A DNA stretch of 40,378 nt from Deltaproteobacteria bacterium (GCA_032128375.1 JAQBGU010000126.1:1-40378); one strand, 5' to 3'; positions 5,037-40,378 are shown, numbered from the stretch's first letter. Notes: generated by a model not told the origin, from the sequence alone. Translations and numbers: made by a program.

Positions 5037-5037
5037 G

Positions 5038-12578: not shown

Positions 12579-12605
12579 TGGGGGCCTTTTCGCGCAGGAA
12601 AATTT

Positions 12606-13358: not shown

Positions 13359-13372
13359 CTTGTTTCTCCTTG

Positions 13373-15412: not shown

Positions 15413-16081
15413 CTAGGCGTCTGGCTCGTAACTCGTCTTCGGAAAGAAGTCTCCGCGACCCTCGGGTGTCATGTCGAGGAAGTGCCAGAACGGGGAAAGC
15501 TGGTCCATCCCGTTGAAGTGACCTTCCTCCATCATTGCGCTGATCGAGGTGAAATGAAACAGCCGGCCCGCCTCGAGTCGGAACACCGAGATTCCGGGAT
15601 ACTGGTCACCTTCCGGACTTTCAAAACCGAGTCGCTGTTTCAGATCAGAGTCGGCCGCGCAAACGACCCGCAGGTTGTTCCAACCTCGCCCGCTCCCGTA
15701 CGCGATGAAGGGACCGAGCCCTCCAGCGATCAGCACCGCGAAATTCACGCGCTGTTCGAGGTGCGCCATCAGCGCGTTGTAGCCGTCGGCCCAGAGCGTG
15801 CACATAGGACATGGGTTCAGTTGTTTCTTGCCCTGCATGAAATGCATCAGCAGCAGCGGCTTGCCCGGGTCCTGGAACAGCTCGCTCAGGCGTACAGCCA
15901 CGGTCTGCCCACCGCGAACCTCCTCGAAAATCGAGTCCTCGATGGCGGTGTCTGTCGGCAATCGCCGCCGCAACGCGGCCACGCGCCCCACCTGATCCTT
16001 GAGCGCGATCTCGGCCTGGAGAAGCTCGCCGCGGATCTTCCGGTATTCCGGTGACTCGTTGAGAAGTTGCTTGACACTCAT
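15413..16081 (-). CDS. DUF899 family thioredoxin-like protein
   Basis: ESPEYRKIRGELLQAEIAL...AALRRRLP, CPMCTLWAD and LDMTPEGR; ATGA overlap with the upstream gene. Confidence 0.85.
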   Translation of the reverse strand: MSVKQLLNESPEYRKIRGELLQAEIALKDQVGRVAALRRRLPTDTAIEDSIFEEVRGGQTVAVRLSELFQDPGKPLLLMHFMQGKKQLNPCPMCTLWADGYNALMAHLEQRVNFAVLIAGGLGPFIAYGSGRGWNNLRVVCAADSDLKQRLGFESPEGDQYPGISVFRLEAGRLFHFTSISAMMEEGHFNGMDQLSPFWHFLDMTPEGRGDFFPKTSYEPDA

Positions 16082-16539
16082 CGGGAGGTCTCCGTCTGAA
16101 GGTGTTCTTCGAGTTTTGTGAGTATTTCCTGCCAACCCTGTTCGTGGCCGTCGTAGCTGTCGGTATCGGGCAGCTCGTCGTGAACGAGTACGATTCGGGT
16201 CTGACCGGCGCCAGCCGGCTCGAGAGTGACTTCGATGCGGGTTCGCCGCTGTCCTTCAGGTTGCCAATCCGATACCCACGTCATGACGAGCCGCTTGGGG
16301 GGCTCGATCTCGAGGTATTCGCCTCGCTGCAGATAATCCTGTTCGGCTCCGTGCATGAGGATCTGAAAGCACCCACCGACCCGGAAATCGAGTTCGACGC
16401 TGGCCCGCTCCATGTCCGGCGCCGGGCACATCCAGACAGCCAGGCCCTCAGGATCCGACCAGGCCTCGAAGACCTCTTCTGGCGACGCCGACAGCAAGCG
16501 GTCCTGGACGATCGGCGATCTTCGTTTGGATTCGGTCAT
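16078..16539 (-). CDS. SRPBCC/AHSA1-like domain protein
   Basis: ASPEEVFEAWSDPE...LDFRVGG...GEYLEIEPPKRLVMTW...HEQGW. Confidence 0.9.
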   Translation of the reverse strand: MTESKRRSPIVQDRLLSASPEEVFEAWSDPEGLAVWMCPAPDMERASVELDFRVGGCFQILMHGAEQDYLQRGEYLEIEPPKRLVMTWVSDWQPEGQRRTRIEVTLEPAGAGQTRIVLVHDELPDTDSYDGHEQGWQEILTKLEEHLQTETSR

Positions 16540-16904
16540 CGTGCGCTCCTGCGTTTCTTTTTGGGCTTCGAGCGGCTGCTTCGGAGATAGGTCTCGAGAG
16601 AATCGAGACGGTCTTCCCAGAATCGAACGTATTCCGTCGTGAAATCCGCGGCAGCGGCCAGCGGCGTAGCATCGAGCGAACAGTGGTGCTCGCGGCCCCT
16701 CACCTCACGTTGCAGCAATCCCGCGCCCTCCAGCACCCGCAGGTGCTTCGAGATGGCAGCCAAGCTGAGGTCGAATGGCGCGGCCAGTTCACCGACGGTG
16801 GCAGCTCCTGTGCGGAGCTGGCCGAGCAGCGCTCGCCGAGTCGGATCGGCGAGCGCTGCAAAGGTTCGATCGAGGGAGTGACTCATCGGGACATTCGAAA
16901 TCAT
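16536..16904 (-). CDS. ArsR/SmtB-family regulator
   Basis: FAALADPTRRALL...TVGELAAPFDLSLAAISKHLRVLEGAGL...FWEDRLDSL. The start may instead be at 16886. Confidence 0.92.
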   Translation of the reverse strand: MISNVPMSHSLDRTFAALADPTRRALLGQLRTGAATVGELAAPFDLSLAAISKHLRVLEGAGLLQREVRGREHHCSLDATPLAAAADFTTEYVRFWEDRLDSLETYLRSSRSKPKKKRRSAR

Positions 16905-16923
16905 TCAACTAATGGGTTGAATG
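16902..16923. promoter_or_regulatory. Candidate ArsR autoregulatory operator
   Basis: CATTCAAC-N6-GTTGAATG perfect inverted repeat overlapping the ArsR start. Confidence 0.75.
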
Positions 16924-16949
16924 TACATCGATCCCCCCGCGGTTGCAAT

Positions 16950-17342
16950 TCACGCGCTCGAAGCCAGCGTAACCAGCCATACGCAGCTTCCAATGGCGAC
17001 CAGGAACGACGTTGAACGCAGCGGCGCGAGGTCGGCGATATAGAAGCCAGCGTGCAGGACGCGGGCCACAACAAACAACATCGCGGCGGTTGCAGACGAA
17101 CCCGGATCGGCCCCCGCCATGTGCGCGACCGCAACACAGGCTGTGAAGATGCCGACCGCCTCCCAGGCGTTTTGCTGAGCGGCGACCGCCCTCGCTCCCG
17201 CGCCTTCGAGCAGTGCGCTCTGGGCTCGGGGGTTGTTGTTGTCGACTGAGTCGAACTGCTGTGACTTGAAATAGCCGCCGATACCGGCCAAGACGAGCGG
17301 GATCAGTACGGTGATGAGCAGACACCAGAACGGGGTGGTCAT
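16950..17342 (-). CDS. MAPEG family membrane protein
   Basis: DNNNPRAQ...RAVAAQQNAWEA...FVVARVLHAGFY...LRS; GAGGTG RBS. Confidence 0.88.
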   Translation of the reverse strand: MTTPFWCLLITVLIPLVLAGIGGYFKSQQFDSVDNNNPRAQSALLEGAGARAVAAQQNAWEAVGIFTACVAVAHMAGADPGSSATAAMLFVVARVLHAGFYIADLAPLRSTSFLVAIGSCVWLVTLASSA

Positions 17343-19646: not shown

Positions 19647-19756
19647 CGGGCCCTACCGCTCCACGTTCGCCAGCGAACGGTACGATGCTTGACTGATGGC
19701 GCGCGACGGTGGATCGTGTTGGATTCGGGATCATGCAATCACCACGGAGAAGCGGA

Positions 19757-21391
19757 ATGCCCAACCAGCAGCAATCGAACCGTTCGGAAAGCGCGAGCGG
19801 GTTCGACGCGGTCGTCATCGGTGCGGGTTTTGCTGGCTTGTACATGCTACACCGCCTGCGAGGCCTCGGTCTTTCGGCACGCGTATACGAAGCCGGCAGC
19901 GGTGTCGGCGGCACCTGGTTTTGGAATCGCTATCCCGGTGCTCGTTGCGATATCGAGAGCATGGAATATTCCTACCAGTTCTCTGCGGACCTGCAGCAGG
20001 AATGGGAGTGGACCGAGCGCTACGCGTCCCAGCCGGAAATTCTCGCGTACATCAACCACGTCGCCGATCGCTTCGATCTGCACCGCGATATTCAATGCAA
20101 TACCCGCGTCCGCTCGGCGCATTTCGACGAACAGACCAACCGATGGACGATCGTCACGGACGGCGGCGCGCGCGTCACTTCGCGGTATTGCGTCATGGCG
20201 ACCGGTTGTCTGTCATCGATCAATCAGCCCCACTTCGAAGGACTCGATTCGTTCGAGGGAGACTCGTATCAGACCGGAAACTGGCCCAACCAGGGAGTTG
20301 ACTTCACGGGGAAGCGTGTCGGCGTGGTGGGAACCGGTTCGTCCGCCATTCAAGCCATCCCGCACATCGCCGAGCAAGCTGCTCATCTCTTTGTCTTCCA
20401 ACGAACTCCGAACTACAGCGTGCCCGCGCGAAACGGACCCCTCGATCCGCTCGTCCAGAAGGAAATCAAGGCCGACTACGCGGGCTTCCGCGAGAGGAAC
20501 AGCCTGGAGGGGTTTGGCGCCGGCTTCAACGCGAATGAGGCGACCGCGGTCGATGCGTCACCCGCCGAGAGGCAACGCGAGTACGCGCAGCGATGGGCGT
20601 ATGGAGGACTTCCGTTCCTGGCCGCGTTTTCCGACCTGCTCAACAGCCGAGAGGCGAACGAAACAGCCGCAGATTTCATCCGCGAGCGAATCCGCGAAAC
20701 TGTGAATGACCCTGCGCTGGCCAAGACCCTGTCACCGAGTCACACCGTGGGTTGCAAGCGGCTGTGCGCGGACACCGGCTACTACGAGACATTCAATCGG
20801 TCCAACGTGACGTTAGTCGATGTCAGCAACTCCCCCATTGAAAGAATCACCAAAACCGGGCTGCGGGCGAACGGCGAGGCATTCGACCTCGACGCGATCG
20901 TATTTGCGATCGGCTTCGACGCGATGACCGGTGCGGTGCTGAACATCGACATTCGCGGTAGTGGTGGACGGACCCTGCAACAGAAATGGTCGGAGGGCCC
21001 ACGCACCTACCTGGGCATCGCAACGTCGGGTTTCCCGAACTTGTTCACAATCACAGGCCCGGGCAGCCCGTCGGTGTTGTCGAACATGCTGCCATCGATC
21101 GAACAGCACGTGAACTGGATCGCGGATTGCATCGCGTACATGCGCGAGCGCAACCTCGAACGAATCGACGCCAGCGTCGAGGCCGAACAAGCCTGGGTCG
21201 CACACGTCAACGAAGTGGCCGACGAAACGCTGTTTCCAACCTGCAATTCCTGGTACGTAGGGGCCAACATTCCCGGCAAACCCCGCGTCTTCATGCCGTA
21301 CTTGGGCTACCCGCAGTACGTCGAGAAATGCAAGGAGGTCGTCTCGAATCAGTACGAGGGCTTTACGTTGACGGCCGCCGACTCGAACTAG
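19757..21391 (+). CDS. Type I Baeyer-Villiger monooxygenase (cyclohexanone/phenylacetone monooxygenase family)
   Basis: GAGFAG, GGTWFWNRYPGARCD, FEGDSYQTGNWP, GTGSSAIQ and GCKRLC. Confidence 0.93.
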   Translation: MPNQQQSNRSESASGFDAVVIGAGFAGLYMLHRLRGLGLSARVYEAGSGVGGTWFWNRYPGARCDIESMEYSYQFSADLQQEWEWTERYASQPEILAYINHVADRFDLHRDIQCNTRVRSAHFDEQTNRWTIVTDGGARVTSRYCVMATGCLSSINQPHFEGLDSFEGDSYQTGNWPNQGVDFTGKRVGVVGTGSSAIQAIPHIAEQAAHLFVFQRTPNYSVPARNGPLDPLVQKEIKADYAGFRERNSLEGFGAGFNANEATAVDASPAERQREYAQRWAYGGLPFLAAFSDLLNSREANETAADFIRERIRETVNDPALAKTLSPSHTVGCKRLCADTGYYETFNRSNVTLVDVSNSPIERITKTGLRANGEAFDLDAIVFAIGFDAMTGAVLNIDIRGSGGRTLQQKWSEGPRTYLGIATSGFPNLFTITGPGSPSVLSNMLPSIEQHVNWIADCIAYMRERNLERIDASVEAEQAWVAHVNEVADETLFPTCNSWYVGANIPGKPRVFMPYLGYPQYVEKCKEVVSNQYEGFTLTAADSN

Positions 21392-29131: not shown

Positions 29132-30100
29132 CTAGGAAGCCTGTCGGCCCGCTGCGCTCTCGCGCCGGATCTGCTCCCAACGAAACGGTGACTTGATCTG
29201 CGCCCACCAGGTCATCGGGAAGGCGGACAGGCCGGGGATTCCGATCTCTGCGGGCGGCTCGCGGTCTTTCGGCAGGAAGCGCGTTCCGAACAGCGTGTCC
29301 CAGACGATGATGGTCTGGCCGTAGTTGTGGTTGGATTCATCCATGGTCTTCGAATGATGCCATCGGTGCAGCTCTGCCATGCTGAAGAAGTGGTTGAGCA
29401 CCCCGAGCCGCAGTTGCAAGTTCGCGTGCTGGAAGATCCCATGCACGGCCGTCACCAACGTGAACAGCGCCAACACTTCGACGCTACACCCCAGCAGGAC
29501 GAGAAGGCCGTAGGATGGGATGAAGATGATCATGATATCGAGTGGGTGGAAGCGACCGGCGTTCAGCCAATACAGTCGCGGCGCGCTGTGGTGCGTGGCG
29601 TGAACGCGCCAAAGCGGTTCCCACTCGTGTTCGATGCGGTGAACCGTGTAGCCGGGCAGCTCGCCGATGACCAGCGCGAGCGCCAACTGGGCCAGTAGTG
29701 GCGCTTCGCTCGGCCAGAGTCCCATGCCGAATTCGCTCGACAACCAGCCACCGATCGCGACGCCGCCGGCCGCTACGAAGGGCGTCACGAGCCCAACCAG
29801 GATCCCGATGTTGATGCTGTGGGTTGCGTCCACGCGAACGTCGTCGTGCGGCCGGTTCCAGCTGCGATGGTATGGGTAGACGTGTTCGAGGATGGCCACG
29901 ACGGCGAACGCGCTTAGCTGCGGTATCAAAACCGCCTCGGGTGCTGGTACTCCGGTCGCCATCCAGTAGATGCACCACGCGACGCTGGCGCCCATCACGA
30001 CAGGGAAGACAGACCATTGAAAAGCGGCCGGAGCAACACGGCTGTCAGTCACCCGTTCAGTCACCCGTTCAATCACCCGTTCAATCACCCGTTCAGTCAA
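29132..30100 (-). CDS. Sterol desaturase/fatty acid hydroxylase family
   Basis: His boxes HRIEH, HATHH, HANL and HRWHH. The TTG at 30100 follows GGAGG; start uncertain. Confidence 0.9.
   Translation of the reverse strand: MTERVIERVIERVTERVTDSRVAPAAFQWSVFPVVMGASVAWCIYWMATGVPAPEAVLIPQLSAFAVVAILEHVYPYHRSWNRPHDDVRVDATHSINIGILVGLVTPFVAAGGVAIGGWLSSEFGMGLWPSEAPLLAQLALALVIGELPGYTVHRIEHEWEPLWRVHATHHSAPRLYWLNAGRFHPLDIMIIFIPSYGLLVLLGCSVEVLALFTLVTAVHGIFQHANLQLRLGVLNHFFSMAELHRWHHSKTMDESNHNYGQTIIVWDTLFGTRFLPKDREPPAEIGIPGLSAFPMTWWAQIKSPFRWEQIRRESAAGRQAS
30049..30096. repeat. Four 12-bp tandem units TCACCCGTTCAR
   Basis: TCACCCGTTCAG, TCACCCGTTCAA, TCACCCGTTCAA, TCACCCGTTCAG; reads TERVIERVIERVTERV in the desaturase frame. 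Confidence 0.92.
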
Positions 30101-30390
30101 CCATGCCTCCAGCGTGCGGCGGCAATCGCGATCAGACTTTCTCCAAGAACTCGAAGAACTGCAACGCATACACGGCATCGAACCCGGTAAGCGTACAATC
30201 TGTCAGACGAACAATCATCCCGGTCGAAGCACTGATTCGAATCGCGCGTGCGAGCGAGCCCACCGAGACGTGACCCAACCCGATACACCTCCACCTGATT
30301 CATCGATTGAAAGCCAAGCCGTGGCGCGCGACAATCATCCAGACGGGGGGCATCAGGTCGCTCGGGTTCCCGCGCGCTGGAGGATCGTTT

Positions 30391-31137
30391 GTGAATGGTA
30401 CGGCTCTTGGATTTGTCGCATTGCTCGGGATCGTCTGTTCCGGCGTGCTTTGGTTTCGTGCGATGGGCGCTGTCAGCCTGCCGGCCAATCGGTCCGGTTT
30501 CGTCGCCGCGTGGCTCGGCTGTGGCGCCCTCGGCATCGCGGCCATCGCCCAGGGGCCGGGCTGGGTGGGCGGCGTTCCCGCGGTTTTATCGATCATTGGC
30601 GCGAGTTTTTTCCTTTTCACGGTGACGATCAGCCGCCAACAAGTGAAGGCCGACGCAATCCGCGTGGGTGCGACGTTGCCCGATTTCAGTGCTGCTGACG
30701 AAAACGGTGAAGCGTTCGACTCATCCAGCCTCGCGGGTCACCCAGTCCTGATCAAGTTCTTTCGCGGACACTGGTGACCCTACTGCGTCGCCGAGTTACG
30801 GCGATGGGAAGAGCTTCGGCCCGAGTTCGATGCACGCGGTGTCCAGATCGTCACGGTCTGCACCGACACGCCCAACCAGATCAAGGCCGGCCACAAGAAG
30901 CACAACCTCGGCGCACGCATGCTCTCGGATCGGGAACTCGAAGTGACGGATCGCTTCGGCTTGCGCAATCAGGGTTTCCATTCCGGGATTCCCGGCCAAG
31001 CCAAGGCATTGCCGGTACCCACTTCGATCTTGGCAGATGCCGACGGGAAGGTGGTGTGGATGGATCAATCCGAGAACTACCAGCGCCGGTCGGACCCCGA
31101 CTACGTGCTGGGCGCGCTACGAACTCACCTCGCCTGA
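30391..31137 (+). CDS. Membrane-anchored AhpC/TSA (peroxiredoxin-like) selenoprotein, UGA=Sec at 30775-30777
   Basis: GGAGGA then GTG; three TM segments; VGATLPDFSAADENG...PVLIKFFRGHW*PYCVAELRRW. The same frame stays open through IVTVCTD...MLSD...PTSILADADGKVVW to the stop at 31137 (248 aa). Confidence 0.88.
30786..30806 (+). promoter_or_regulatory. Candidate bacterial SECIS element
   Basis: Stem CGTCGCCG/CGGCGATG (8 bp, one G-U) with loop AGTTA starting 16 nt after the UGA. Confidence 0.7.
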
Positions 31138-31157
31138 GCTATCGCGCGGCTTCCAGG

Positions 31158-31212
31158 AGCCCGACCCAAGATGGGTCGGGCGATGACGTCGAAACTTTTG
31201 ACGCGCAGCGGC
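31158..31212. repeat. Dispersed intergenic repeat, copy 2, with hairpin
   Basis: GCCCGACCC-aagat-GGGTCGGGC hairpin plus a second stem; similar to 8234-8287; lies between convergent genes. Confidence 0.65.
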
Positions 31213-31222
31213 GAACGCGCAA

Positions 31223-32104
31223 CTAGTGGACCGCGGGCGCACACGCGCCCGCGGCAAGCGTCGACAGGCAGTAGTCGGGCCGGTGCAGCCAGCAACTCGG
31301 GTGAACGTCGTGGATATCCGTCCGAAGGCTGCGCACTGCGTCTTGACCACCTCTGCCAAAAGCCTCGCGTAGGGCCGCGTCACCTGTCGAATCACGGCCA
31401 CCGAAGCATGGGTAGATGCCCACCGGCGAGACGAATTTCGCGTCGAAGTTTCCTTTGTGGTACTCGAGTCGCAACATGTGACCGCCCCCCATTCCGCGCT
31501 CGTCGATTGCGACCGTCATGGGAAACAGCATGCGGCCAGCGTCGGCAAGAGAGTTCAACCAGATCGGCTGTGGGTCGGTGGCTCCCGCGTTGACGAAGAT
31601 CACGTCCTGCGGCCCCGGATCGAATGAACTGCCGTCCGCGCAGTGGACACTCACCCAGTCGTAGCCCGCCAGGTTCGCGGTCGATCGTTTCGCCAACTCG
31701 GGATCCAATTCGATGGCGGTTACCGCGCCCGCAGCGCCTACGACCTCTGCGATGATGGCCGTGTAGTAGCCAACTCCGCAGCCGACGTGCAGCATGCGAT
31801 CACCCGCTGCGATATCAAGCGCATCGAGCCAGGCTGCGAGCCCGGAAGGTTGGCCATTATTGAGCTGGCGGCTCTCGTCGATAGCGACCAGGATATTGGC
31901 ATAGAGGTGACCTGGATCTGCGTCTGCGGTGGTGCGATACCCGCTCAGCGGCGACCCCTCGATGACTCGCCACGGTCCCCGTCCGAGGTAGTCCTCCCGG
32001 TGTACCGTCGCGAATGCGCGAACCAGGGCCTCCGATCGCAGACTGGAAATCTTGCGGAGATCGTTTGCGAAACTGGCACGCCTTTGATCGAGCGAGTCGG
32101 TCAC
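31223..32104 (-). CDS. Protein-L-isoaspartate O-methyltransferase-like SAM methyltransferase
   Basis: AFATVHREDYLG, LNNGQPS, LHVGCGVGYYTAIIAEVVG and DVIFVNAG. Confidence 0.88.
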   Translation of the reverse strand: MTDSLDQRRASFANDLRKISSLRSEALVRAFATVHREDYLGRGPWRVIEGSPLSGYRTTADADPGHLYANILVAIDESRQLNNGQPSGLAAWLDALDIAAGDRMLHVGCGVGYYTAIIAEVVGAAGAVTAIELDPELAKRSTANLAGYDWVSVHCADGSSFDPGPQDVIFVNAGATDPQPIWLNSLADAGRMLFPMTVAIDERGMGGGHMLRLEYHKGNFDAKFVSPVGIYPCFGGRDSTGDAALREAFGRGGQDAVRSLRTDIHDVHPSCWLHRPDYCLSTLAAGACAPAVH

Positions 32105-32281
32105 GATCGGTTCACCTGATTCGAATTTCCGAGCTGCAATTGTGGAGTATTTCTCCCAAATTTGCCCCAGGGTCGGCATCTCCCAAACCCTGACGGCGTC
32201 GCTCCTACGGTAGATCTATCGCTCGAAACCCCGCGGCCGACTAGCATTCCGATCCACCGAATCGTTCAACAGGGGGATGGG

Positions 32282-32716
32282 ATGACAACTCTCAGTATGA
32301 CTCGAACCGAACGCGAGGCCTTCTTGGCAGATCTACACGTCGGTGTCATCAGCATCGAAGAACCCGGCCGGGCCCCGCTGACGGTTCCGATCTGGTACGA
32401 CTACGACCCCGCGATCGGGGTTTGGGTGATCACCGGCGCCGAATCGCGAAAGGGCCAGCTGCTGGCCCAGGCAATGCGGTATTCGCTTTGTGCTCAGATC
32501 GAGACCGGCCTCTACAAGTATGTGAGCGTCGAAGGTCCGATTATCGAAATCCGAGCAGCCGAGGTCGAAAAAGACACTCGCCCGATGGCACACCGCTATT
32601 TTGGAGCGGAGTTTGGAGACCAGTACATCGCGAGTTCGCAACAAACCGGCAACCAGGTATACGTGATGCAGCCCACGCGTTGGCTCACAGTCGACTATGC
32701 GAACGCGGCACCTTGA
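32282..32716 (+). CDS. Pyridoxamine 5'-phosphate oxidase-like (FMN/F420 split-barrel) protein
   Basis: MTRTEREAFLADLHVGVISI...PLTVPIWY...SRKG...YKYVSVEG...WLTVDY. Confidence 0.88.
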   Translation: MTTLSMTRTEREAFLADLHVGVISIEEPGRAPLTVPIWYDYDPAIGVWVITGAESRKGQLLAQAMRYSLCAQIETGLYKYVSVEGPIIEIRAAEVEKDTRPMAHRYFGAEFGDQYIASSQQTGNQVYVMQPTRWLTVDYANAAP

Positions 32717-32999
32717 TCATCGATCGGCTGATCGGAGGCTCCGCACTTTCGATCATGGTCGGCACTGTTGGCCCAGTCGTCAGTAACAGCGTCAGTATGC
32801 AGAATCCGCCCCCGATGATCGTGTAGGGCTCGCAGTCGTAGATGACTCGCCCCTGCTCACCGTGCTGCCAGTCGAGGACAGGCTGCAGGGAGGGAGGCGC
32901 CATCCCCGGAGCTGGCTCCGCTCCAACAAGGTGCTGCCGGAGTAGGCGTCGGTGGAGTGTGGAGCGGAGGGCCCCAATCAAACAGGGTCTCCGTCCAGG

Positions 33000-33197
33000 G
33001 CGCACCTCGGACGGTGGGTACCGCACTGCTTTCGGTTCCGACCATGCGATGCACTGGCTGGGCCGCGTGGCCGGACGGTTCGCGCGTTGGCAGATGGGCC
33101 GGGTGCCGTCGACTGGATGATGGGAGCCGTAAGAGCGGAGACGTTCACGACCGGTTCTGCGAGAGCCCGGGGGTGCGATTCCCCCGGGCTACTCTCC
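33000..33197 (+). mobile_element. Group II intron 3' remnant (maturase tail, domain V, domain VI)
   Basis: 34-nt DV at 33124-33157 with AGC triad, GAGA tetraloop and AC bulge. DVI at 33161-33194 has a 10-bp perfect stem and a bulged A at 33191. Upstream is a frameshifted AHLGRW...RFR / HWLGRVAGRFARWQMG...*. Confidence 0.88.
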
Positions 33198-33375
33198 TCG
33201 ACATCGCCGCCGACGGTCGAATCTTCTTCTCCGACGCCTCGATCTCTACGAGAGCCACAGAGCTACGATGCGCCCACCGAGATCGTCAGCGGCCGCGTCA
33301 CAAGCCGCTTGTTCAGCTACGGACCCGACGGCCCGGGGCCTGCGACTCGAGCACGATGGGCTGCACTTCGTCGCC
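33197..33375 (+). pseudogene. Strictosidine-synthase-like/SMP-30 beta-propeller fragment with two frameshifts
   Basis: LDIAADGRIFFSDAS, then EIVSGRVTSRLFSYGP, then LEHDGLHF in three successive frames. This matches the family's D.A.DG.IYFSDAS...GRLL.YDP...DGL.FAN order. Confidence 0.75.
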
Positions 33376-33389
33376 GACCAGCGCGAACC

Positions 33390-34271
33390 TCATTCTGCAG
33401 GGGGCTGGCTTTCGATAGGACTCGGACGCTTCAGTCCCGGGATCGGTCGGCCCACTTCCAATGCCACCATGGTGAAAAACGAGTCGTCGATCGGAGGATT
33501 CATCGCGATGTCCTCGAATCGTGCCTCAGTCCGCGTCCCGCGCAGAGTATTTGTAACGACGATTCGAGAGGGAATGAGGTGCGCATCCAGCGAGATCAGG
33601 TCGGAACGGGGTGTCTCCAAGATCCGAAACGGTTCGGGCGAATCCGTTCGTTTGAAAAATTCCACCCTTAGCAACACGTCGTCGGTTGCGGCAATCAGAA
33701 AATCGACGTGGTCGTAGCCGGCCCCATCGACCGGTGACGCCTCAACGACGAACAGCGCCTCGTTGGCATCGACAACGTTGCGGGTCGATCGAATCTCATA
33801 GTCTTGTGCGCGCCGACGCTCGAAGTCCTCGAACCAAAGGTCCGAACCCATAAACGAGTCGGTGCGCTGGAAGCTCGACACTCGCCGAACGCGCTGCATC
33901 TCGGGAAGAAAAACGAAGTGATCGTCGGCTCGGTCGAGATGCTCCAGCATGAGAATCGTCGTGCCGCGCATCCACATCGGTTCGAGGAATCGTCCGTAGA
34001 CGTTTTGACGACCGCCGATTCGCTTCCGGGCGATCTCGACCCTTCGAATCAGCTCGTCTCCGCGCCGGTCGTAGATGTGAAGTGTGACGTTCATCAGAAG
34101 GTCGCAGTCGTACAGATTGTCGAAAGCACGGTCCAGAATCGTTTCGCCATGCATCGAACTCACCAGCCCGGACCCATCGTCGGCGGCCCCGAGCAGGGCA
34201 ATCGATAGGGCGACAATCAACAGGGCGTAACGGCTTTCCAACGGTTTCCCCCGATTCGCTCCGCTTCTCAC
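33390..34271 (-). CDS. LolA-like 'outer membrane lipoprotein-sorting' family protein
   Basis: Signal-like N-terminus; RFLEPMWMRGTTIL...DDHFVFLPEMQRVRRVS...SFMGSDLWFEDF...NPPIDDSFFT; GTGA overlap with the upstream stop. Confidence 0.85.
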   Translation of the reverse strand: MRSGANRGKPLESRYALLIVALSIALLGAADDGSGLVSSMHGETILDRAFDNLYDCDLLMNVTLHIYDRRGDELIRRVEIARKRIGGRQNVYGRFLEPMWMRGTTILMLEHLDRADDHFVFLPEMQRVRRVSSFQRTDSFMGSDLWFEDFERRRAQDYEIRSTRNVVDANEALFVVEASPVDGAGYDHVDFLIAATDDVLLRVEFFKRTDSPEPFRILETPRSDLISLDAHLIPSRIVVTNTLRGTRTEARFEDIAMNPPIDDSFFTMVALEVGRPIPGLKRPSPIESQPPAE

Positions 34272-37200
34272 TGCGTGAGCGGCACATGCAATACGAAACT
34301 GCTGCCCTCGCCAGGCGTCGATGTTACACAGATCTTCCAGCCCATACCCTCGGCGATCTCACGACTGATCGACAGCCCAATCCCCCGGCCTCCCGAACGG
34401 GACCGGGTCGTGTAGAACAGGTCGAATACTCGAGTGGTTTCGTCCAGAGTCATCCCGACTCCACTATCTCGAACCTCGAATGACAGCTCGCCACTCAACT
34501 CGGTCGCGTACACCCAGACGCTATCCTCTACGTCGCTCGCAGCGAGGGCATTCTCGACCAGGTTGGTGAGGATTCGAGCGAGCTTGTCCGAATGCTGCAT
34601 TCGAGGAAGTTCGGGCGCGGCACTGACGAGAACGCGGCCACCACCGGGATCGACTGCATCCACCACTCGGCCGATCACTTCGGTGACGGGGATCCCAATC
34701 CCAGGAGCGGGGTGGTGAGCCAGTTCGTCGACCATTCCGTACACGATTTCCAGTACGTGCTGCGACACAGCTTCGATCTTCGCGGCTTCTGCGCGCATCT
34801 GCTCGGGTTTCGAACTGGTGGCGATGATGCGTTCCGCGCGCCGCTCTATGACGCGCAGAGGGGTACCCAGATCGTGGGCGATACCGGTCACGAGCCGACC
34901 GAGAGCCGACCGTTCGGCAGCCGACGCTTGCTGTTCGGCCGCACGGGCGTTTCTGACAGCAGATGCGGTGTGTACGGCGGCCTTGCATGCAAACTCGATT
35001 TCTTCGCTCGAGAAGGCACGACCGGAATCCGGCGACCCAATCAGGATGATCCCCATGGGCTCGTCTCCGTCGTCGATCGAGATGAGAAGTTCGACTTCGG
35101 CGTTGCGGAGAGCAACGGCATCTGGTGAATCCGGCGCATCCCCTCGTGCGAGATGCAGGAACTTCCGATCGCCCAATAGCTCGATAGCGAATGATGCATA
35201 CTGGAGTCGAAACGCGGGACTCGCGAGCCCTGCGTAGGCGGGACAGCAATCGCCGTCACGAATGAGAAAGACCGCAACTCCAGTCGACTCGAGTCCCGCT
35301 TCGAGCGTTTGACCCACGAGCGTTGCGCTGACCACCTCTGATGAGAGATCGGCCTTCCTGACCTCCTGCACTCTCAATAGTTCCCGCCGTTTTCTCGCGC
35401 CGGGCGCGAGCGTATCGGTCACAACCGGTGAAAGTCTTCGATGGATCGACTCGGAGATCGCGAAACCCAAGGCTCCCGACAGTACCCAGAGCGAGACACC
35501 GCCAATCCCAACCATCGCATGGAAAGTCGTGATTGCTGTCGCAGTGATCGCTCCCGCAACACCGACACGTACAACCCCATCGAGAATCGACCTGGCGTTC
35601 GCGGCCAGGTCGAATAGCTCGTACCGCGTGGTCGCGTATCCGAACGGCACTGCGAACAGGCCAAGGCCTGAGAGAAGCGGAACCATTGAACCGCCAGCTA
35701 GAGACTCCCCCCAGCCGAAGTGGATCGCGCCAAAGATCAGCGGAACTCCCGCCGACCCGACGAGCAAGAGACGGGCTCGTGTACGCTCCAGTGCCGACCT
35801 CGTCTCATTTGCGGCCCTCACGGCATTGATCCACAACACGAGCGCGCCACACCACGTGAATGCGAGCTGAAATTGAACGACGAGGGTCCACAGGCTCGGC
35901 TCTCCTCTCAAGCCACGAACACCCGCGAATGCGAGAAGTACTGCGAATCCATAGGGGACCAAAACCACACCGGGCGCTTCGCGCGTAACGCTGCCTCGTC
36001 TCGGAAACGTCAAAGCCAGATGCCCCAACGTCGCTGGAATCAAAGGGGCCGTGGCAACACCAATCCATGCCAGAAAGGGGCTCTCGAAGTGGCATAGGAT
36101 GGCAATGAGCTGCACACCAGTGACGGAAAAGAGGAGTAACAGCGGCGTAGAGGCTCGTGCGGTTGCGCTCGAGTACACGCGAATTCCGAACGCCAATACG
36201 ACGGAGACGATGCACCCCGCCAGCAGGATTCCCAGCAGGCGCGAGCCGGGCGCCGCCGCAGAGGTAGGTACATCGATCGACCTCCGAACACCATCTCGCT
36301 CGACACTGAGTCGCACTCTGCCTTGGCTGCTCTCGATGGCTTGCGAGTACGGCCGATCACGCGAGAACGAAACAAGCCTTCCATCCGCCTCCACTCCCAG
36401 CACCTGATCGAGGGGTCGGAGCGGACAATCGTGGGATGACCCGACGATGAGCGGGATCACTCCGTTTGGCATGACTCGACAGGCCAGGCGTGTTTCGGGG
36501 TCATTTGGGGAGAGCCAAGGAGCTGCAGCCAGAACGAATGCAGTCAGGAGGGGAAGGACGAGGGCGACCAGCTGGACTCGTCGCCGCGACTCCGATGTAT
36601 GCTCCTCAACCCCCGGTGGCCCATCCGGAGCCTTGCCTTGCGACGATCCGGTCACGACGAAAATGATGGCGGGCAGCACCCAGAGATCCGCAACCAATGC
36701 GCCAAAGATCGCCACTCCTGCCAAGAACCCGAAACTCGCGATGCTCTGCCAGGAAGAGAACAGAAGCATGAAGAAGCCGAGAGTCAGGGCAACCGAGGTG
36801 GTGACGATTGCGCGACCGACGTGACGAACCGCGCCTTCGATTGCTTCCGCGCCTTCGGAGCCATCCCTTCTTCGTCGGTGAAATTCGGCGATCAGATGGA
36901 TGGCGTCGTCGACGGCGAGGCCCAACACGATTGCTGCAACCATCGCGGTTCCGACGTCGAGGTTGATGCCAGCGAAACCCATCACGCCCAGCGTCACCAC
37001 GACCGGAAGCAGTGTCGGGAACATCCCGACCAGGGCCCATCCGAACGACGCACCCACACTGAGACCAATCCAACGAATGAACAGGACAAGGATTCCGAGG
37101 ATCACCACAGCAGCGGTCGCGAAACTCGATAGCTGGGTTTGCTGGATCTCGGTCACCATGTCGCGATAAACGGCATAAGGGCCAGTAAGTGTGACCGCGA

Positions 37201-38938
37201 CAGACGAACGGAGACCGCTGGCCAGAATGCCATCCACTGCGCTCAGTATCCTGGCGCGCTCGCTCTTTGGCCGTTTTTCCGCCTCGACCGACACCCTCAG
37301 ACGGCTCAGTGTGGGGCTGATCCATTTTTCGAGGGCACCGGGGTCGCGTAGTGAGAGGAGCGTGAGGAGGTTGCTATTGAGACCGTCGGTATCGGGCAGC
37401 CGTTCGAATTCCGGCTTGTCGTCGTGCAACAAGCGATTGGTCCGTTTCAGCATGCTCACAACGCTGTGAACGGGACCCAGCCCGTCGATTGCGCTGAGCG
37501 ACATCTCGAGTTGCTCGACCTCGTGCAACAAGCCTGCGTCGTTCGCGAGTGTGCCGACCGGCAAGGCGAGTTCGATCTCGAGAGTATCAGGCTTCTGCAG
37601 GTGGGATTCGACGAAGCGGTATCCCTTGACTATCTCGCTCTGTTCTCCGAGTAGCTTGTATTCGTCAACATCGACATCCAAACGGAAGACACCCAACACA
37701 CAGACCAATCCCAGAGCAATCGCCCCAATCAAGATTGGCACCGCCCGTCGGCGGGTGGCGGCGACCAAGGACGCCAATCCCATTTCCCAGCGTTCCGAAC
37801 TCTGGGCGGCTCGTGGACGCTCGGCAGGCAACAGGATCATCAGGATGGGTAGGACGGTAAAACTCAGGAGCAGGGCTACGACCATTCCGAATGCCGCAAC
37901 CGTGCCGAACCGTACGAAGCTCTCGAGACTTGACGTAGTAAACGAGATGAATCCAACAGCCGTCGTCAGCGAAGTAACGAGACACGCCGGTCCCACTCTC
38001 CGGGCTGCGAGCAAGAAGGCTTCCGGTCGGACGGAGACCCCCCTGACTCGATGTTTTGCGTACTCGGCCAAGATGTGGACCGAGTCGCTGAGCGCAATGA
38101 CCAGAATCAGCGGGGGAAGTGTCTCGGTAAGAGCATTGGTCGGCCACCCAAGAGCCGCCTGAAAGCCCATGGTCGAGCCTGTCGATAGCCCGACGGTTGC
38201 GAGAGAGGCGGCCACCATTTGCCAGGATCGGAACAGCACGAACACAACGACGGCGATCAGCGCGATCATCAATGGAATGAGCCGCTGAGAGTCGGCTGCT
38301 AGTTCCGCATCGGTCTGCGCGAGCTGCGCGGGTTGACCAACGATGTAGAATTGGAATCCCAACGCGCGAAACGGCTCCAGTGCGCCTTCGAGCGCCGACA
38401 GTACGCCCGTCGCCGTATCACTGTGTGACGAAGACAATTCGAGGACGATCGCGCCCACAAGGCCGTCCGGGGAAACAAGAAGGCCCCGCCACAGGGGATC
38501 GGCGACAGCGCGGGCCGCCAGAGCCGCGATGTCGGACGCCGGTTGTTTACCATCGTAGAGCGTGCGTCCACCGAAGGAATCCCCTTCGGACACCCATAAT
38601 TGTGTCGTCGCGGGACTCTCGATCCGGATGATGTCGGAACGACTGCTGAGATCGCGCACCACCGAGTGCGCCATTGCTAGAGACGAGGAATCGAAGACCG
38701 TCTCACATGCAGCGCTCTGTTCACAGCTCCACGTGGCAATGATTGGCAGGCCACCACCGAAATCATCGATGAACTGATCCAAACGAATGACCGTGGGGTG
38801 CTCATTGCCGAGATACGCCCGATAACCCGTTTCGGCTCGCAGTGTCGGAATTCGCGAAGCAAGAAGAGCCACTCCCAACACGAGCACCAGCAGGACGACC
38901 ATGGGGTGAGCGAGTGCGATTCGGGTGAGTCGATCCAA
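34268..38938 (-). CDS. MMPL/RND exporter fused to a PDZ-like, multi-TM, GAF-like histidine kinase
   Basis: Single open frame. Two RND repeats with IALSDSVH and GLAVDDAIH; linker; LRPLDQVLGV...VRLSVERDG; TM bundle ending YATTRYELFD; GAF-like MGIILIG...FSSEEIEF; AHDLGTPL, NLVENA, DSGVGM, FYTT and GRGIGL. TTG start 8 nt after GGAG. Confidence 0.9.
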   Translation of the reverse strand: MDRLTRIALAHPMVVLLVLVLGVALLASRIPTLRAETGYRAYLGNEHPTVIRLDQFIDDFGGGLPIIATWSCEQSAACETVFDSSSLAMAHSVVRDLSSRSDIIRIESPATTQLWVSEGDSFGGRTLYDGKQPASDIAALAARAVADPLWRGLLVSPDGLVGAIVLELSSSHSDTATGVLSALEGALEPFRALGFQFYIVGQPAQLAQTDAELAADSQRLIPLMIALIAVVVFVLFRSWQMVAASLATVGLSTGSTMGFQAALGWPTNALTETLPPLILVIALSDSVHILAEYAKHRVRGVSVRPEAFLLAARRVGPACLVTSLTTAVGFISFTTSSLESFVRFGTVAAFGMVVALLLSFTVLPILMILLPAERPRAAQSSERWEMGLASLVAATRRRAVPILIGAIALGLVCVLGVFRLDVDVDEYKLLGEQSEIVKGYRFVESHLQKPDTLEIELALPVGTLANDAGLLHEVEQLEMSLSAIDGLGPVHSVVSMLKRTNRLLHDDKPEFERLPDTDGLNSNLLTLLSLRDPGALEKWISPTLSRLRVSVEAEKRPKSERARILSAVDGILASGLRSSVAVTLTGPYAVYRDMVTEIQQTQLSSFATAAVVILGILVLFIRWIGLSVGASFGWALVGMFPTLLPVVVTLGVMGFAGINLDVGTAMVAAIVLGLAVDDAIHLIAEFHRRRRDGSEGAEAIEGAVRHVGRAIVTTSVALTLGFFMLLFSSWQSIASFGFLAGVAIFGALVADLWVLPAIIFVVTGSSQGKAPDGPPGVEEHTSESRRRVQLVALVLPLLTAFVLAAAPWLSPNDPETRLACRVMPNGVIPLIVGSSHDCPLRPLDQVLGVEADGRLVSFSRDRPYSQAIESSQGRVRLSVERDGVRRSIDVPTSAAAPGSRLLGILLAGCIVSVVLAFGIRVYSSATARASTPLLLLFSVTGVQLIAILCHFESPFLAWIGVATAPLIPATLGHLALTFPRRGSVTREAPGVVLVPYGFAVLLAFAGVRGLRGEPSLWTLVVQFQLAFTWCGALVLWINAVRAANETRSALERTRARLLLVGSAGVPLIFGAIHFGWGESLAGGSMVPLLSGLGLFAVPFGYATTRYELFDLAANARSILDGVVRVGVAGAITATAITTFHAMVGIGGVSLWVLSGALGFAISESIHRRLSPVVTDTLAPGARKRRELLRVQEVRKADLSSEVVSATLVGQTLEAGLESTGVAVFLIRDGDCCPAYAGLASPAFRLQYASFAIELLGDRKFLHLARGDAPDSPDAVALRNAEVELLISIDDGDEPMGIILIGSPDSGRAFSSEEIEFACKAAVHTASAVRNARAAEQQASAAERSALGRLVTGIAHDLGTPLRVIERRAERIIATSSKPEQMRAEAAKIEAVSQHVLEIVYGMVDELAHHPAPGIGIPVTEVIGRVVDAVDPGGGRVLVSAAPELPRMQHSDKLARILTNLVENALAASDVEDSVWVYATELSGELSFEVRDSGVGMTLDETTRVFDLFYTTRSRSGGRGIGLSISREIAEGMGWKICVTSTPGEGSSFVLHVPLTQ

Positions 38939-38943
38939 CCGGT

Positions 38944-40209
38944 CTACTCCGACCGCTCGCCTTCGCGCCGAACGGGAACGAGCTTGTGACGACGAAAGCG
39001 ATACTTCGCTGCGTTTCGAGTAATTCCCAGATGATCTGCAACGCCGGTGTATGTTCCGTGCTTCTCCCAAAGTTCCAAGAGCTGTTCGCGTTCACCTTTC
39101 TCTCTGCGGCGCGAAATGCGCTCGAGTGGTGTCTCGATTTTAGATAGAACCGATTCCGCGCAGTCGGCGGTGATTTCACCACTGGGTGTGTATACGAGCA
39201 TCGCTTCCACGACTCGCTCCATCTCATCGAGATTCTGCTCCCAAGAGTGATTCCTGAGTTTCTCGAGAGCGGGTTCTCCGATAGAGACATCGCGCCGACC
39301 GAGCTTCGAGCCGTACCGCTCGATCATGGACTCGATGATTGCGGGAATGTCCTCTTCACGTTCCGATATGGGTGGCAGGCTGACTTCGAACTGGGCCAGG
39401 GTTTCAAAGAGTGCGGAATCGAAGTCGCCACTCTCGACCAATTGCTGCAAATCGCGTTCGGTGGACGCTACGACTCGGTAACCAGCATCGCCGAGCTGGA
39501 TCGATCTCGAGAGCCGATCACGCCAGCGGGATTGAAGAGTCCCGGATAACTGATCGACATCGGCGAGGAACACCAGGCCCGTTTCGGGGTCTCGATCGGC
39601 GCCCGGCCGCAATCGACAATCGTTCACGTGGAAGTCGGAATCGCCCTGATGGCCAAAGCGATGAAGATATCGTGCCACCTGTTCGTGGCCGGTGCCGACC
39701 GCGCCGCGAATCAGCACCGGGCTCCTGATTTCCGCAAGAGAATTCAGCTGACGAAGTAGGGTCAATGTCGCCGAACTGTGTCCCGCGAGAGCCTCTGGAA
39801 TTCGGTCCACAAGTCCTGACAAAAGTTCCTTCGCCCTGGAGACGAGCCCCGCTACGCCTTCGTCATTGAACGGAAAGAAGTCCGTGGCTCCACTCTTGCC
39901 GGCTGCAACGGCAATCGAGAGCGACCCATACGCCGAAAGAAGAAGAACAGGGCATGCCGCATTGACCGAACCCGAAGACCTGATCCGCTTCAGGAGCGCA
40001 AGACCATCGACCCGCGGCATTCGAAGATCGGTGATCACCAGATCGATCGGCTGACGCTGAAACTGCATCCATCCCGACTCACCATCAACAGCGGTCACGG
40101 TCCGAATCCCGGCGTCTTCGAGTTCCGCGCAAACCAGATCGCGAGAAAACTCACGATCATCGACCAATAGAACTGTGCTCTGGGCGGCGCGCTCGGGCCT
40201 GGAGTACAT
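38944..40209 (-). CDS. NtrC-like response regulator (REC, degenerate AAA+, Fis-type HTH)
   Basis: VLLVDD, ITDLRMPRVDG and LLSAYG; PVLIRGAVGTGHE; RVVASTERDL; VADHLGITRNAAKYRF. Confidence 0.88.
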   Translation of the reverse strand: MYSRPERAAQSTVLLVDDREFSRDLVCAELEDAGIRTVTAVDGESGWMQFQRQPIDLVITDLRMPRVDGLALLKRIRSSGSVNAACPVLLLSAYGSLSIAVAAGKSGATDFFPFNDEGVAGLVSRAKELLSGLVDRIPEALAGHSSATLTLLRQLNSLAEIRSPVLIRGAVGTGHEQVARYLHRFGHQGDSDFHVNDCRLRPGADRDPETGLVFLADVDQLSGTLQSRWRDRLSRSIQLGDAGYRVVASTERDLQQLVESGDFDSALFETLAQFEVSLPPISEREEDIPAIIESMIERYGSKLGRRDVSIGEPALEKLRNHSWEQNLDEMERVVEAMLVYTPSGEITADCAESVLSKIETPLERISRRREKGEREQLLELWEKHGTYTGVADHLGITRNAAKYRFRRHKLVPVRREGERSE

Positions 40210-40228
40210 GAGTGTCCCGTAGTTGCGT

Positions 40229-40268
40229 CTCCTGAGAAAACGCGTCCTCGGGCGCGATTTCTCAGGAG
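40229..40268. promoter_or_regulatory. Long inverted repeat upstream of the regulator-transporter-kinase operon
   Basis: CTCCTGAGAAA (40229-40239) / TTTCTCAGGAG (40258-40268), with inner CGCG/CGCG also pairing; 19 bp upstream of the ATG at 40209. Confidence 0.6.
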
Positions 40269-40378
40269 CAATGTCTCCGCCCGAAGGGCGGTGCAACGCT
40301 AACAACGATACCCTTTGGCCACAGAACAAGTACACGAAAATCGAAGCGCAGCGGTTCGAAACGCCAAGCATTGGAGCG

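Follow-up and report, generated by a model that had tools for sequence, protein, structure and literature searches.

What might a membrane pump joined to a histidine kinase in a single polypeptide do when it is encoded between a response regulator and a LolA-like protein? The question is raised by a three-gene module on the minus strand of a window (the whole stretch of DNA analysed, 40,378 nt) from a marine-sediment Deltaproteobacteria bacterium, in which the open reading frames gave the order regulator, pump–kinase, LolA_like. The regulator gene (40209-38944) runs from ATG 40209 to TAG 38946-38944 and encodes 421 aa; the fused MMPL/RND pump and histidine kinase gene (38938-34268) runs from TTG 38938, in frame, to TGA 34270-34268 and encodes 1556 aa; and the LolA_like gene (34271-33390), in its longest reading from GTG 34271, encodes 293 aa. 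The close coupling described in the original prediction was found in the sequence: five bases (ACCGG) separate the regulator stop from the pump–kinase TTG, and the LolA_like GTG shares bases with the pump–kinase TGA in a 4-bp GTGA overlap. The TTG has GGAG 8 nt upstream and was preferred over an ATG 12 codons further in because L4, L9 and P12 of the resulting N-terminus are invariant in 16/16 fused homologues; the database gene call for this protein (P0001, 1544 aa) fits the ATG. The exact LolA_like start is ambiguous, since an in-frame TTG 10 codons downstream also leaves a signal peptide.

A lost stop codon or a frameshift in the metagenome-assembled genome could have produced such a fusion as an artefact, and two features of the relatives fit this explanation: where pump and kinase are split, both reading frames abut or overlap, so that a single-base error could fuse them, and one relative (L113) carries an in-frame stop within its kinase. 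Three public sequencing runs from a single study, one of them possibly the source sample, contradict the explanation: their contigs cross the junction without gaps, covering 33165-38931 (5767 nt, no letter different), 33165-39009 (5845 nt, one different) and 33165-40258 (7094 nt, 17 different). It is contradicted as well by 20 other clusters of full-length fused proteins (1525-1575 aa) among 5.8 billion proteins, and by the tree position of the window's gene, inside a clade of four genes that are all fused, with full branch support. We consider an artefact very improbable and conclude that the pump–kinase fusion is real.

The pump half (residues 1-790; 36569..38938, minus strand) was recognized from Pfam and hydropathy as an MMPL/HAE3-like RND transporter. 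MMPL (PF03176) matched the long ORF in two stretches (5.1e-36, 124.7 bits against a cut-off of 20.5), and Pfam also gave matches to Sterol-sensing (1.2e-14) and Patched SSD (8.3e-11). The NCBIfam model for HAE3, TIGR00921, reached 185.1 bits (1.7e-54), under its cut-off of 351.9, and models of the hopanoid pump HpnN matched at 3.9e-36, also under their cut-off; by these scores the pump is HAE3-like without being a curated HAE3 member. A simple hydropathy scan predicted 12 membrane helices, at 7-25, 220-418 (five) and 603-762 (six), with two periplasmic loops (26-219 and 419-602) after helices 1 and 7. Residues D677, D678, H681 and H288, which we take from other RND pumps to be the proton relay, are invariant in 16/16 fused homologues.

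The kinase half continues with one helix, a periplasmic beta domain with a cysteine pair, nine helices with a 7TM-like core, a GAF-like domain, a DHp domain and an ATPase domain, and the sensor domains set upstream of the kinase core matched no Pfam family. The linker helix (TM13) and beta domain (residues 788-900; 36239..36577, minus strand) were delimited from AF2 models with pLDDT of 83 and 81, which place strands at model residues 26-104, and two cysteines of this domain, C820 and C838, are invariant in 16/16 and 21/21 sequences. The domain had been predicted to be PDZ-like, and weak Foldseek matches to PDZ proteases (CtpA 8sxe_B, E 0.044; DegP 3otp_E, E 0.11), together with Atlas neighbours that combine PDZ with several helices (10-65% of their members carry PDZ families), agree weakly with this at the level of fold; membership in a Pfam PDZ family does not follow, as none of the 21 members matched Pfam PDZ or any other Pfam family here. 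The nine-helix bundle (residues 901-1161; 35456..36238, minus strand; AF2 helices at model 107-387) carries the conserved motifs HLALTFPR, ERARAR and RY.LFD, and the most strongly conserved sensor motifs sit in these membrane helices rather than in the periplasmic domain. Its best fold matches were 7TM receptors with an N-terminal outside domain, at VIA-align Z of 10-12.5 over model 108-328, which is under the tool's caution level for helical bundles. No Pfam family matched the bundle in 21/21 members at E up to 10 or 1, and HisKA_7TM occurs in 12% of the members of one Atlas neighbour cluster.

The GAF-like, DHp and ATP-binding domains occupy residues 1162-1556 (34268..35455 with the stop codon, minus strand) and were placed by Pfam, invariant boxes and Foldseek. 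HATPase_c matched at 5.7e-23 (81.9 bits against a cut-off of 26.4; 5.8e-24 in a second Pfam run), while the Pfam scores for HisKA (0.0031, 18 against 26.9) and GAF_3 (0.032) were both under cut-off. The phospho-accepting H1355 in AHDLG is invariant in 16/16 and 19/19 sequences and lies on long paired helices in the model; the N, G1 and G2 boxes (N1463; D1491, G1493 and G1495; G1519 and G1521) are invariant in 16/16. The top Foldseek matches of this region were histidine kinases such as HK853 and YycG. At the sequence level, the catalytic motifs of both pump and kinase are intact.

The LolA_like protein (33390..34271, minus strand) is predicted to be soluble and periplasmic. It matched PF17131 in Pfam (1.7e-32, 113 bits against a cut-off of 30), and its solved relatives are 9tp6 (1.9e-12) and 3bk5 (4e-12). 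Its N-terminus, RYALLIVALSIALLGAADD, is a signal peptide without a lipobox cysteine, as are those of all 12 orthologue frames with a visible N-terminus.

The regulator (38944..40209, minus strand) is NtrC/NtrX-like, with a receiver, a degenerate AAA+ domain and a C-terminal helix-turn-helix. Pfam matched Response_reg (2.4e-19), Sigma54_activ_2 (2e-19, 70.7 against a cut-off of 25), AAA_lid_14 (5e-11) and Sigma54_activat (47.1 against 20.2), so that an AAA+ sigma-54 interaction domain is present by sequence. GAFTGA is absent: a gap of ~24 residues falls where canonical paralogues aligned with it carry ...GSFT.A..., and the alignments to PDB entries are discontinuous between residues 194 and 243. 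The Walker A and Walker B motifs read GAVGTGHE and FLADV, so that both the lysine of the former and the Asp-Glu of the latter, used in ATP hydrolysis, are missing; orthologues that keep a receiver have G.GR or G.GH at Walker A. The receiver retains its DD pair and the aspartate in VITDL, and the lysine of the K-P motif is absent from this regulator and 13/13 orthologues, so that normal phospho-activation is not assured. The same degenerate features run throughout the clade, in keeping with the atypical regulator originally proposed, and because the clade lacks GAFTGA as well as both lysines (Walker A and receiver), it is probably sigma-54-independent. NtrX likewise is not known to carry GAFTGA; it shares the three-part layout and is the best solved relative (5m7n, 9e-30). 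Unlike NtrX, this regulator lacks the Walker A lysine (GTGH versus GAGK) and the receiver lysine, and its NCBIfam NtrX score is 156 against a cut-off of 600.

From this observed basis, which comprises gene order and coupling, domains, intact pump and kinase motifs, a regulator with degenerate motifs, a conserved module and repeated gain or loss of the fusion, we suggest, at roughly even odds (about 0.5), that the module is dedicated to the export of an envelope lipid or other hydrophobe with its own two-component feedback. The MMPL/HAE3-like half would use the proton motive force to lift hydrophobic cargo from the inner membrane, and the soluble LolA_like protein would take it over in the periplasm. 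The kinase, tethered to the pump through the extra membrane helix, may read the transport state, with membrane cargo, pump activity or carrier loading as candidate inputs, and would phosphorylate the adjacent regulator. The regulator may in turn bind DNA on the operon and probably on distant cargo-synthesis genes, in an NtrX-like manner independent of sigma-54 because GAFTGA and an intact ATPase site are missing. Counting against dedicated export with feedback are the HisKA and HAE3 scores under curated cut-offs and the receiver without its conserved lysine.

Many related genomes carry these genes as well, in fused or split form. A sensor-region query matched 45/401 genomes of the phylum, almost all in one order, where matches were found in 7/11, 19/25 and 7/11 genomes of families f1, f4 and f5, respectively. 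Among 20 fetched loci, drawn from 18 other genomes, seven have pump and kinase fused, eight have them adjacent but separate and five have them unlinked; the LolA-like gene is adjacent in 14/20, and a full-length regulator of the clade is present in 12/20, with a receiver-only gene in six more. The three genes thus co-occur elsewhere, as expected if the original prediction of a functional unit holds. A metagenome scan added two further complete loci (L129 and L132), six more with regulator and pump up to the contig end or a break-off of the match (L130), and two with pump and LolA-like gene and no kinase (L127 and L134). Four of the five loci without an adjacent pump retain kinase and LolA-like gene, so the LolA-like gene can be found paired with kinase alone or with pump alone, which would favor dedicated export with feedback. 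A sensor-region tree with 25 rows requires a minimum of four changes in the fused state, at least three of which are forced by well-supported branches; fusion therefore arose or broke at least three to four times, and by Rosetta-stone logic such repeated change of state would also argue for export coupled to sensing.

The same loci bear on a different possibility, that the kinase is an independent envelope sensor reading its own periplasmic signal, such as redox state or the exposed C-termini of proteins, through the cysteine pair and the PDZ-like domain. It would then merely control expression of pump and carrier, and fusion would serve only co-localization or stoichiometry. The two invariant cysteines, the weak PDZ-protease fold matches and the PDZ plus multi-helix Atlas neighbours are consistent with this, as is the prevalence of stand-alone kinases of about 780-800 aa, the commonest form among the best 150 sensor-region hits, of which 23 are fused-length proteins. 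Those 23 hits, like the 20 other fused clusters, also speak for export with feedback. The five loci that keep a kinase with no adjacent pump indicate that kinase function does not require a pump gene next to it, and they count against dedicated export as well. Repeated independent fusion to a pump is hard to explain without functional contact, however, and conservation peaks in the membrane helices instead of the periplasmic domain; we regard an independent sensor as doubtful.

Clues to the cargo came from the neighbourhoods. Across the 20 loci neither an outer-membrane barrel nor any other extra gene is conserved around the module, which upholds its description as self-contained, and the window holds no visible outer-membrane component or cargo gene, as had been noted; both absences weigh against dedicated export. 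No LolB-like or other outer-membrane partner and no AmeA-type outer-membrane channel was found in the window or the relatives' loci. A type III polyketide synthase lies beside the module in five loci (L114, L115, L118, L135 and L136), and in the window's own clade the LolA-like gene of the closest relatives is followed directly by a gene for a PaaK-like ligase; the window has neither. These genes may point to a lipid-type cargo and would support export of an endogenous product. We found no gene remnant in the supposedly decayed region next to 33390. In the closest relatives, that very position is taken by the PaaK-like ligase gene.

A biosynthetic gene beside the module is lacking in most loci, which would suit a substrate-induced tolerance pump that senses and expels hydrophobes of external origin (terpenes, hydrocarbons or toxic lipids, for instance). 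Pump and LolA-like protein would then act as co-sensors, and rising flux would lead the kinase to turn the operon on, as in Bce-type systems. Precedents are AmeD, an HAE3 pump that works with the LolA-superfamily protein AmeB in substrate-induced monoterpene tolerance (excerpts of PMC6394551), and an MMPL/LolA-like protein induced by a long-chain alkane (excerpts of PMC6304351). Genomes hold several copies of the module, including a second fused system in this genome (contigs C71/C199), which also fits. The polyketide synthase and ligase genes of the relatives speak instead for an endogenous product, and the AmeA-type channel is absent, making a tolerance pump possible but unlikely.

Dedicated export with feedback would combine features known separately. 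MMPL/HAE3 RND pumps adjoin periplasmic LolA-superfamily proteins, with proposed lipid carriage to the outer membrane, in the ApeL/ApeM/ApeN set of aryl-polyene clusters and in AmeB/AmeD of Castellaniella (excerpts of PMC8253772 and PMC6394551). A kinase fused with or dedicated to the pump sets this module apart from those systems and from HpnN, and its LolA-like protein is of the PF17131 type, whereas AmeB is of the DUF1329 type. Complete membrane transporters joined covalently to histidine kinases are described in excerpts on CbrA, CrbS (SLC5/STAC) and Ks-Amt5 (Amt-kinase) (PMC7096432, PMC9100948, PMC5764959), and CbrA likewise partners an NtrC-family regulator. Those transporters are symporters or channels; here the transporter is an RND exporter, a second membrane sensor (periplasmic domain plus nine helices) sits between pump and kinase, and Pfam found no STAC domain in the fused protein.

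In PEP-CTERM/XrtA systems, too, an NtrC-type regulator (PrsR) is paired with a multi-helix kinase (PrsK) bearing GAF, DHp and ATPase domains. The last 270 residues of the pump–kinase are matched by the PrsK model (1.9e-24), and the regulator by that for PrsR (2.6e-27), both far under their NCBIfam cut-offs (86.2 against 300 and 95.7 against 502.6), and the membrane region of the window's kinase is unmatched by PrsK. In BceAB-BceS the neighbouring transporter is a co-sensor for the kinase. Their genes travel together (excerpts of PMC3023708), and these co-sensor pairs, with transporter–kinase fusions such as CbrA/CrbS and Amt-kinase, are the nearest working analogues; BceAB is an unfused Firmicutes ABC transporter and BceS has almost no sensor domain.

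In eukaryotes, the RND/sterol-sensing transporter Patched is functionally tied to the 7TM-like receptor Smoothened. The pairing of an RND/sterol-sensing-domain transporter with a 7TM-like receptor is similar here, as an analogy with no homology claimed; the output in this module is a histidine kinase, and the fold match lies under the caution level noted above.

Upstream of the regulator, 169 bp remain before the contig end, which also counts against dedicated export, and this region (40229..40378) is marked by a repeat, altered depth and loose ends. A dispersed palindromic repeat occupies 40229-40305, and 40251-40378 has a 97% identical counterpart on a different contig of this genome, immediately following a type III polyketide synthase gene. 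Coverage roughly doubles in the final bin, several distinct loose ends fall at 40229, 40300 and 40305, and contigs of 1970 nt extend about 1850 nt past the window end.

We detected three closely packed genes on the minus strand of the window, which is a complete contig of a metagenome-assembled genome (6.2 Mb, 249 contigs, 91% complete) and is also present in public marine sediment metagenome runs. A regulator ORF (40209-38944, 421 aa) lies only 169 bp from the contig end and is followed by a gene that fuses an RND/MMPL pump to a histidine kinase (38938-34268, 1556 aa from a TTG) and then by a LolA-like gene (34271-33390, 293 aa). The regulator's TAG is separated from the TTG by ACCGG, and the fused gene's TGA falls within the GTG of the next gene as a GTGA overlap, bearing out the tight coupling of the three genes that had been proposed from the sequence. 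The TTG start is supported by L4, L9 and P12, which precede the first ATG and were invariant in 16/16 fused homologues. In a simple scan, terminator and promoter sites were no commoner than in shuffled sequence, with none just 3' of the LolA-like gene on the minus strand.

The whole fused gene was covered, without gaps, by contigs of three sequencing runs that differed from it at 0, 1 and 17 positions; these runs come from one study, and one of them may be the source. One run contig of 7094 nt spanned all three genes. Among 5.8 billion clustered proteins, we found 20 other clusters of 1525-1575 aa (P0002-P0020 and P0022, 32-51% identity) that contained both MMPL and HATPase_c domains, one of which NCBI assigns to a Myxococcota genome. 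That the pump-kinase fusion is an assembly artefact is hardly credible given these gapless contigs and the other fused clusters.

Pfam matched the fused protein to MMPL in two stretches (5.1e-36), to the Sterol-sensing and Patched SSD families and to HATPase_c, and the third gene product to LolA_like (1.7e-32). The best NCBIfam model for the pump half was HAE3 (1.7e-54, below the cut-off), and the kinase end resembled the PrsK and AtoS models with scores far below theirs. Hydropathy of the pump half followed the RND pattern of one helix, a loop (26-219), five helices, a second loop (419-602) and six helices ending at 762, after which the chain runs through a cytoplasmic linker of 25 residues and crosses the membrane outwards again in a 13th helix (788-806). 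Two AlphaFold models built from alignments of natural relatives, one of residues 791-1556 (pLDDT 83) and one of 791-1200 (pLDDT 81, pTM 0.78), placed next a periplasmic beta domain (~815-895), nine helices, a linker helix, an alpha/beta GAF-like domain, a DHp domain whose long helices bear H1355, and an ATP-binding domain, for 22 predicted membrane helices in the protein as a whole. C820 and C838 of the beta domain were invariant in 16/16 and 21/21 sequences. Pump residues D677, D678 and H681 and the kinase H, N, G1 and G2 boxes were invariant among fused homologues, so both halves look catalytically competent.

The Cys-pair periplasmic domain and the nine-helix bundle form a sensor region that is covered by no family model. 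Even at E values as high as 10, Pfam did not match it in the window's protein, nor did it in any of the 21 related members at E up to 1. Foldseek searches with the entire kinase half returned solely histidine-kinase cores. With the sensor alone no match reached E 0.001; the weaker ones were to 7TM receptors and to two PDZ proteases, CtpA (E 0.044) and DegP (E 0.11). Over model residues 108-328, VIA-align matched 7TM receptors with Z 10-12.5, a score that lies below the caution level and may reflect a common helical-bundle arrangement. Atlas neighbours of the sensor were proteins combining PDZ with multiple helices, with HisKA_7TM in 12% of the members of one cluster. We therefore use "PDZ-like" for the periplasmic domain and "7TM-like" for the bundle only as leads. 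A sensor-region profile run against 1.84 billion representatives yielded 145 representative clusters with E values of 1e-30 or lower and 1088 with 1e-10 or lower; among the best 150 matches, 23 were of fused length, with matches starting near residue 725-816, and most others were stand-alone kinases of 780-800 aa.

The regulator matched Response_reg, Sigma54_activ_2/Sigma54_activat and AAA_lid_14 in Pfam, and its best solved relative was NtrX (5m7n, 9e-30). NtrX is itself an example of an NtrC relative without GAFTGA. Motifs were read from the NtrX alignment and from a MAFFT alignment with orthologues and with canonical paralogues of the same loci. The window's Walker A is GAVGTGHE, with R or H replacing the lysine in those orthologues that keep the receiver, Walker B is FLADV, and a gap of ~24 residues falls exactly where canonical paralogues have their GAFTGA-type loop. 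In the receiver domain the acidic pocket is preserved, as is the Asp of VITDL, and the Lys of the K-P motif is absent from it and from 13/13 orthologues. A C-terminal helix-turn-helix can be aligned throughout the clade, and Pfam HTH_8 had no match to the window's regulator. Judged by sequence, the regulator is a member of the NtrC family, yet it fails every tested feature that defines sigma-54 activators, and the module defines a clade of NtrC-like regulators that lack these hallmarks. At four related loci (L111 11952-13145, L112 6169-7383, L132 7544-8488 and L125 5434-6564), the module adjoins a canonical sigma-54 activator that lacks a receiver and carries HTH_8 and an AAA+ domain whose GAFTGA-type loop is intact. 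This hints at a further layer of regulation, or at a protein that partners the degenerate regulator. Differences among the run contigs clustered at window 38932-39676, in the regulator gene and at its 3' end (27 sites listed), with the fused gene nearly invariant, suggesting strain-level variation of the regulator.

A phylum search with sensor residues 800-1340 matched 45 of 401 genomes, nearly all in the window's order, with matches in 7/11, 19/25, 7/11 and 4/8 genomes of families f1, f4, f5 and f3 and in none of most other families. As far as searched, the pump-kinase module is restricted to one order. Leaving out the window's own genome, we took the 20 best loci, from 18 genomes, and mapped five parts of the module in each by tblastn and reading frames; the source genomes of the loci are mostly metagenome-assembled. 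Pump and kinase shared one frame in seven loci (L103, L106, L113 with one in-frame stop, L114, L115, L116 and L118) and were adjacent but separate genes in eight (L105, L107, L108, L109, L110, L117, L119 and L120), while five had a kinase with no pump directly upstream (L104, L111, L112, L121 and, in a different order, L122); these counts are not independent events because the loci are related. The co-occurrence of the three genes, which the original prediction implied, extends to other genomes, with a fused or adjacent pump and kinase in 15/20 loci, an adjacent LolA-like gene in 14/20 (one on the opposite strand) and a full-length regulator of the window's clade in 12/20. Six of the remaining loci had a receiver-only gene, in many cases accompanied by an AAA-HTH gene of its own, and two had no regulator of this clade. 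The pairing of kinase and LolA-like gene persisted in four of the five pump-less loci.

A metagenome scan with a closer sensor alignment (A5; 17 loci) added two complete modules (L129 and L132) and six further loci in which regulator and pump ran to the contig end or, in L130, to a break of the match. Two loci (L127 and L134) had a pump 52-56% identical to the window's with a LolA-like gene directly after it and no kinase. The window's genome also holds a second, paralogous fused system, one part of it at the end of contig C71 (27492-33105) and the other at the end of C199 (38454-43419), comprising a pump, regulator, fused pump-kinase, LolA-like gene and canonical receiver-less sigma-54 activator (Sigma54_activat 2e-66). 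In a scan of the genome collection with a full-length alignment, the search patterns came from the pump and plain MMPL genes alone were returned; its top match, L003, was rejected as a fusion, being an unfused pump (41% identity) beside a type III PKS.

A quick maximum-likelihood tree of the sensor region (25 rows, comprising all sensor matches among L103-L122, L125, L129, L132 and L137, none dropped) placed the window within a clade of four fused genes with support of 100. The fused state required at least four changes on this tree, at least three of them forced by well-supported branches, though, with abutting frames, sequencing errors could account for part of the split or fused calls in other assemblies. 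Repeated fusion of neighbouring genes is a classic sign of proteins that work in contact, and several apparently separate pump-kinase fusions are strong genomic evidence that these two do so. One fused relative, L113, carries an in-frame stop inside the kinase and three flanking transposase/integrase genes (contig C26 of G363; 4588-5646, 10718-10720 and 11286-13531) and looks like a decaying copy.

To our knowledge, little is understood of lipid-moving RND/MMPL pumps outside mycobacteria or of the way cells gauge lipid traffic to the outer membrane, and the fused protein offers a ready-made single-polypeptide system for asking how transport becomes signal. Earlier papers describe RND pumps adjoining LolA-like proteins in ApeLMN (PMC8253772) and AmeABCD (PMC6394551), transporter-kinase fusions for SLC5 and Amt transporters (PMC7096432, PMC9100948, PMC5764959), and transporter-dependent kinases in the Bce system (PMC3023708). 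Among open-access papers and bioRxiv, we found no description of this sensor region, nor of a histidine kinase to which an RND pump is fused or dedicated. As far as searched, then, the module combines known kinds of parts, and the RND-kinase pairing and the sensor region are what is new.

We suggest, with a probability of about 0.5 and on the basis of sequence, models and gene neighbourhood, from which all our functional claims derive, that the module couples export from pump to LolA-like carrier with kinase-regulator feedback. The pump would draw hydrophobic cargo out of the inner membrane, and the soluble LolA-like protein would ferry it across the periplasm. The sensor kinase, held against the pump, would read cargo, pump state or carrier loading and phosphorylate the regulator, which would act without sigma-54. 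Sensing within the membrane fits the best-conserved sensor motifs (HLALTFPR, PY and RY.LFD), which lie in or beside membrane helices; it is unlikely that the kinase answers a periplasmic signal of its own and merely controls pump and carrier. By analogy, and as an improbable extension, the module could follow a Patched-to-Smoothened-like logic, in which a lipid pump of the RND/sterol-sensing kind is coupled, in many cases covalently, to a 7TM-like receptor with a histidine-kinase output, the pump's lipid movement sets the ligand level read by the receptor's helix bundle, and the LolA-like protein drains or delivers the lipid. If so, the recurrent fusion and fission would identify pump and receptor as an obligate pair, with a sensor domain lacking any family model at its core.

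The neighbourhoods offered some clues to the cargo of the proposed export circuit. Among 129 flanking ORFs of the 20 loci, Pfam and all-against-all comparison found no extra gene common to at least three loci and no outer-membrane barrel. A type III PKS lies immediately beside the module in L114, L115, L118, L135 and L136, the gene order being PKS, receiver-only gene, pump(-kinase), and another adjoins the unfused pump of L003; this link suggests a route of phenolic lipids to the cell surface in some relatives. That the module is a substrate-induced tolerance pump for exogenous hydrophobes seems somewhat unlikely to us. In the window's own clade, a PaaK-like ligase gene (~445 aa) directly follows the LolA-like gene in L132 (15537-16883), L103 (734-2062) and L129 (6649-7977); L103 and L129 are near-identical, and their copy is 61% identical to that of L132. 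Its product had no Pfam match, and a PDB sequence search returned phenylacetate-CoA ligases (4r1l, 6.9e-24).

The window contains neither gene. The original prediction had allowed that a barrel or cargo gene was lost at a decayed region next to 33390, and this was not upheld: tblastn of 31000-33600 with the relatives' PaaK-like and all flanking proteins gave chance-level matches only, and tblastx showed no synteny past the module. The 33 kb downstream hold unrelated genes, including dehydrogenases, a fatty-acid hydroxylase (29132-30178, minus strand), methyltransferases such as a PCMT-like one (31223-32179, minus), a flavin monooxygenase (19709-21391, plus) and, near the other contig end, a DDE transposase gene (256-1986, minus). 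The last 128-129 nt of the window share 97% identity with a segment of contig C31 (218-346) that starts 22 nt past the stop of the only type III PKS in this genome. A palindromic REP-like element at window 40229-40305 occurs in several contexts (C226, 2366-2437, is also listed), read depth was approximately doubled at this end in three runs, and run contigs of ~1970 nt, beginning at 40258, extended ~1850 nt past it. A type III PKS beyond the window end is a weak lead, because the shared segment is partly a dispersed palindromic repeat and the window's nearest relatives have no PKS upstream of the regulator. In L108, a complete Mla-type phospholipid transport set (MlaC, MlaA, MlaE and ABC ATPase; 13046-17158) lies 1 kb from the split module.
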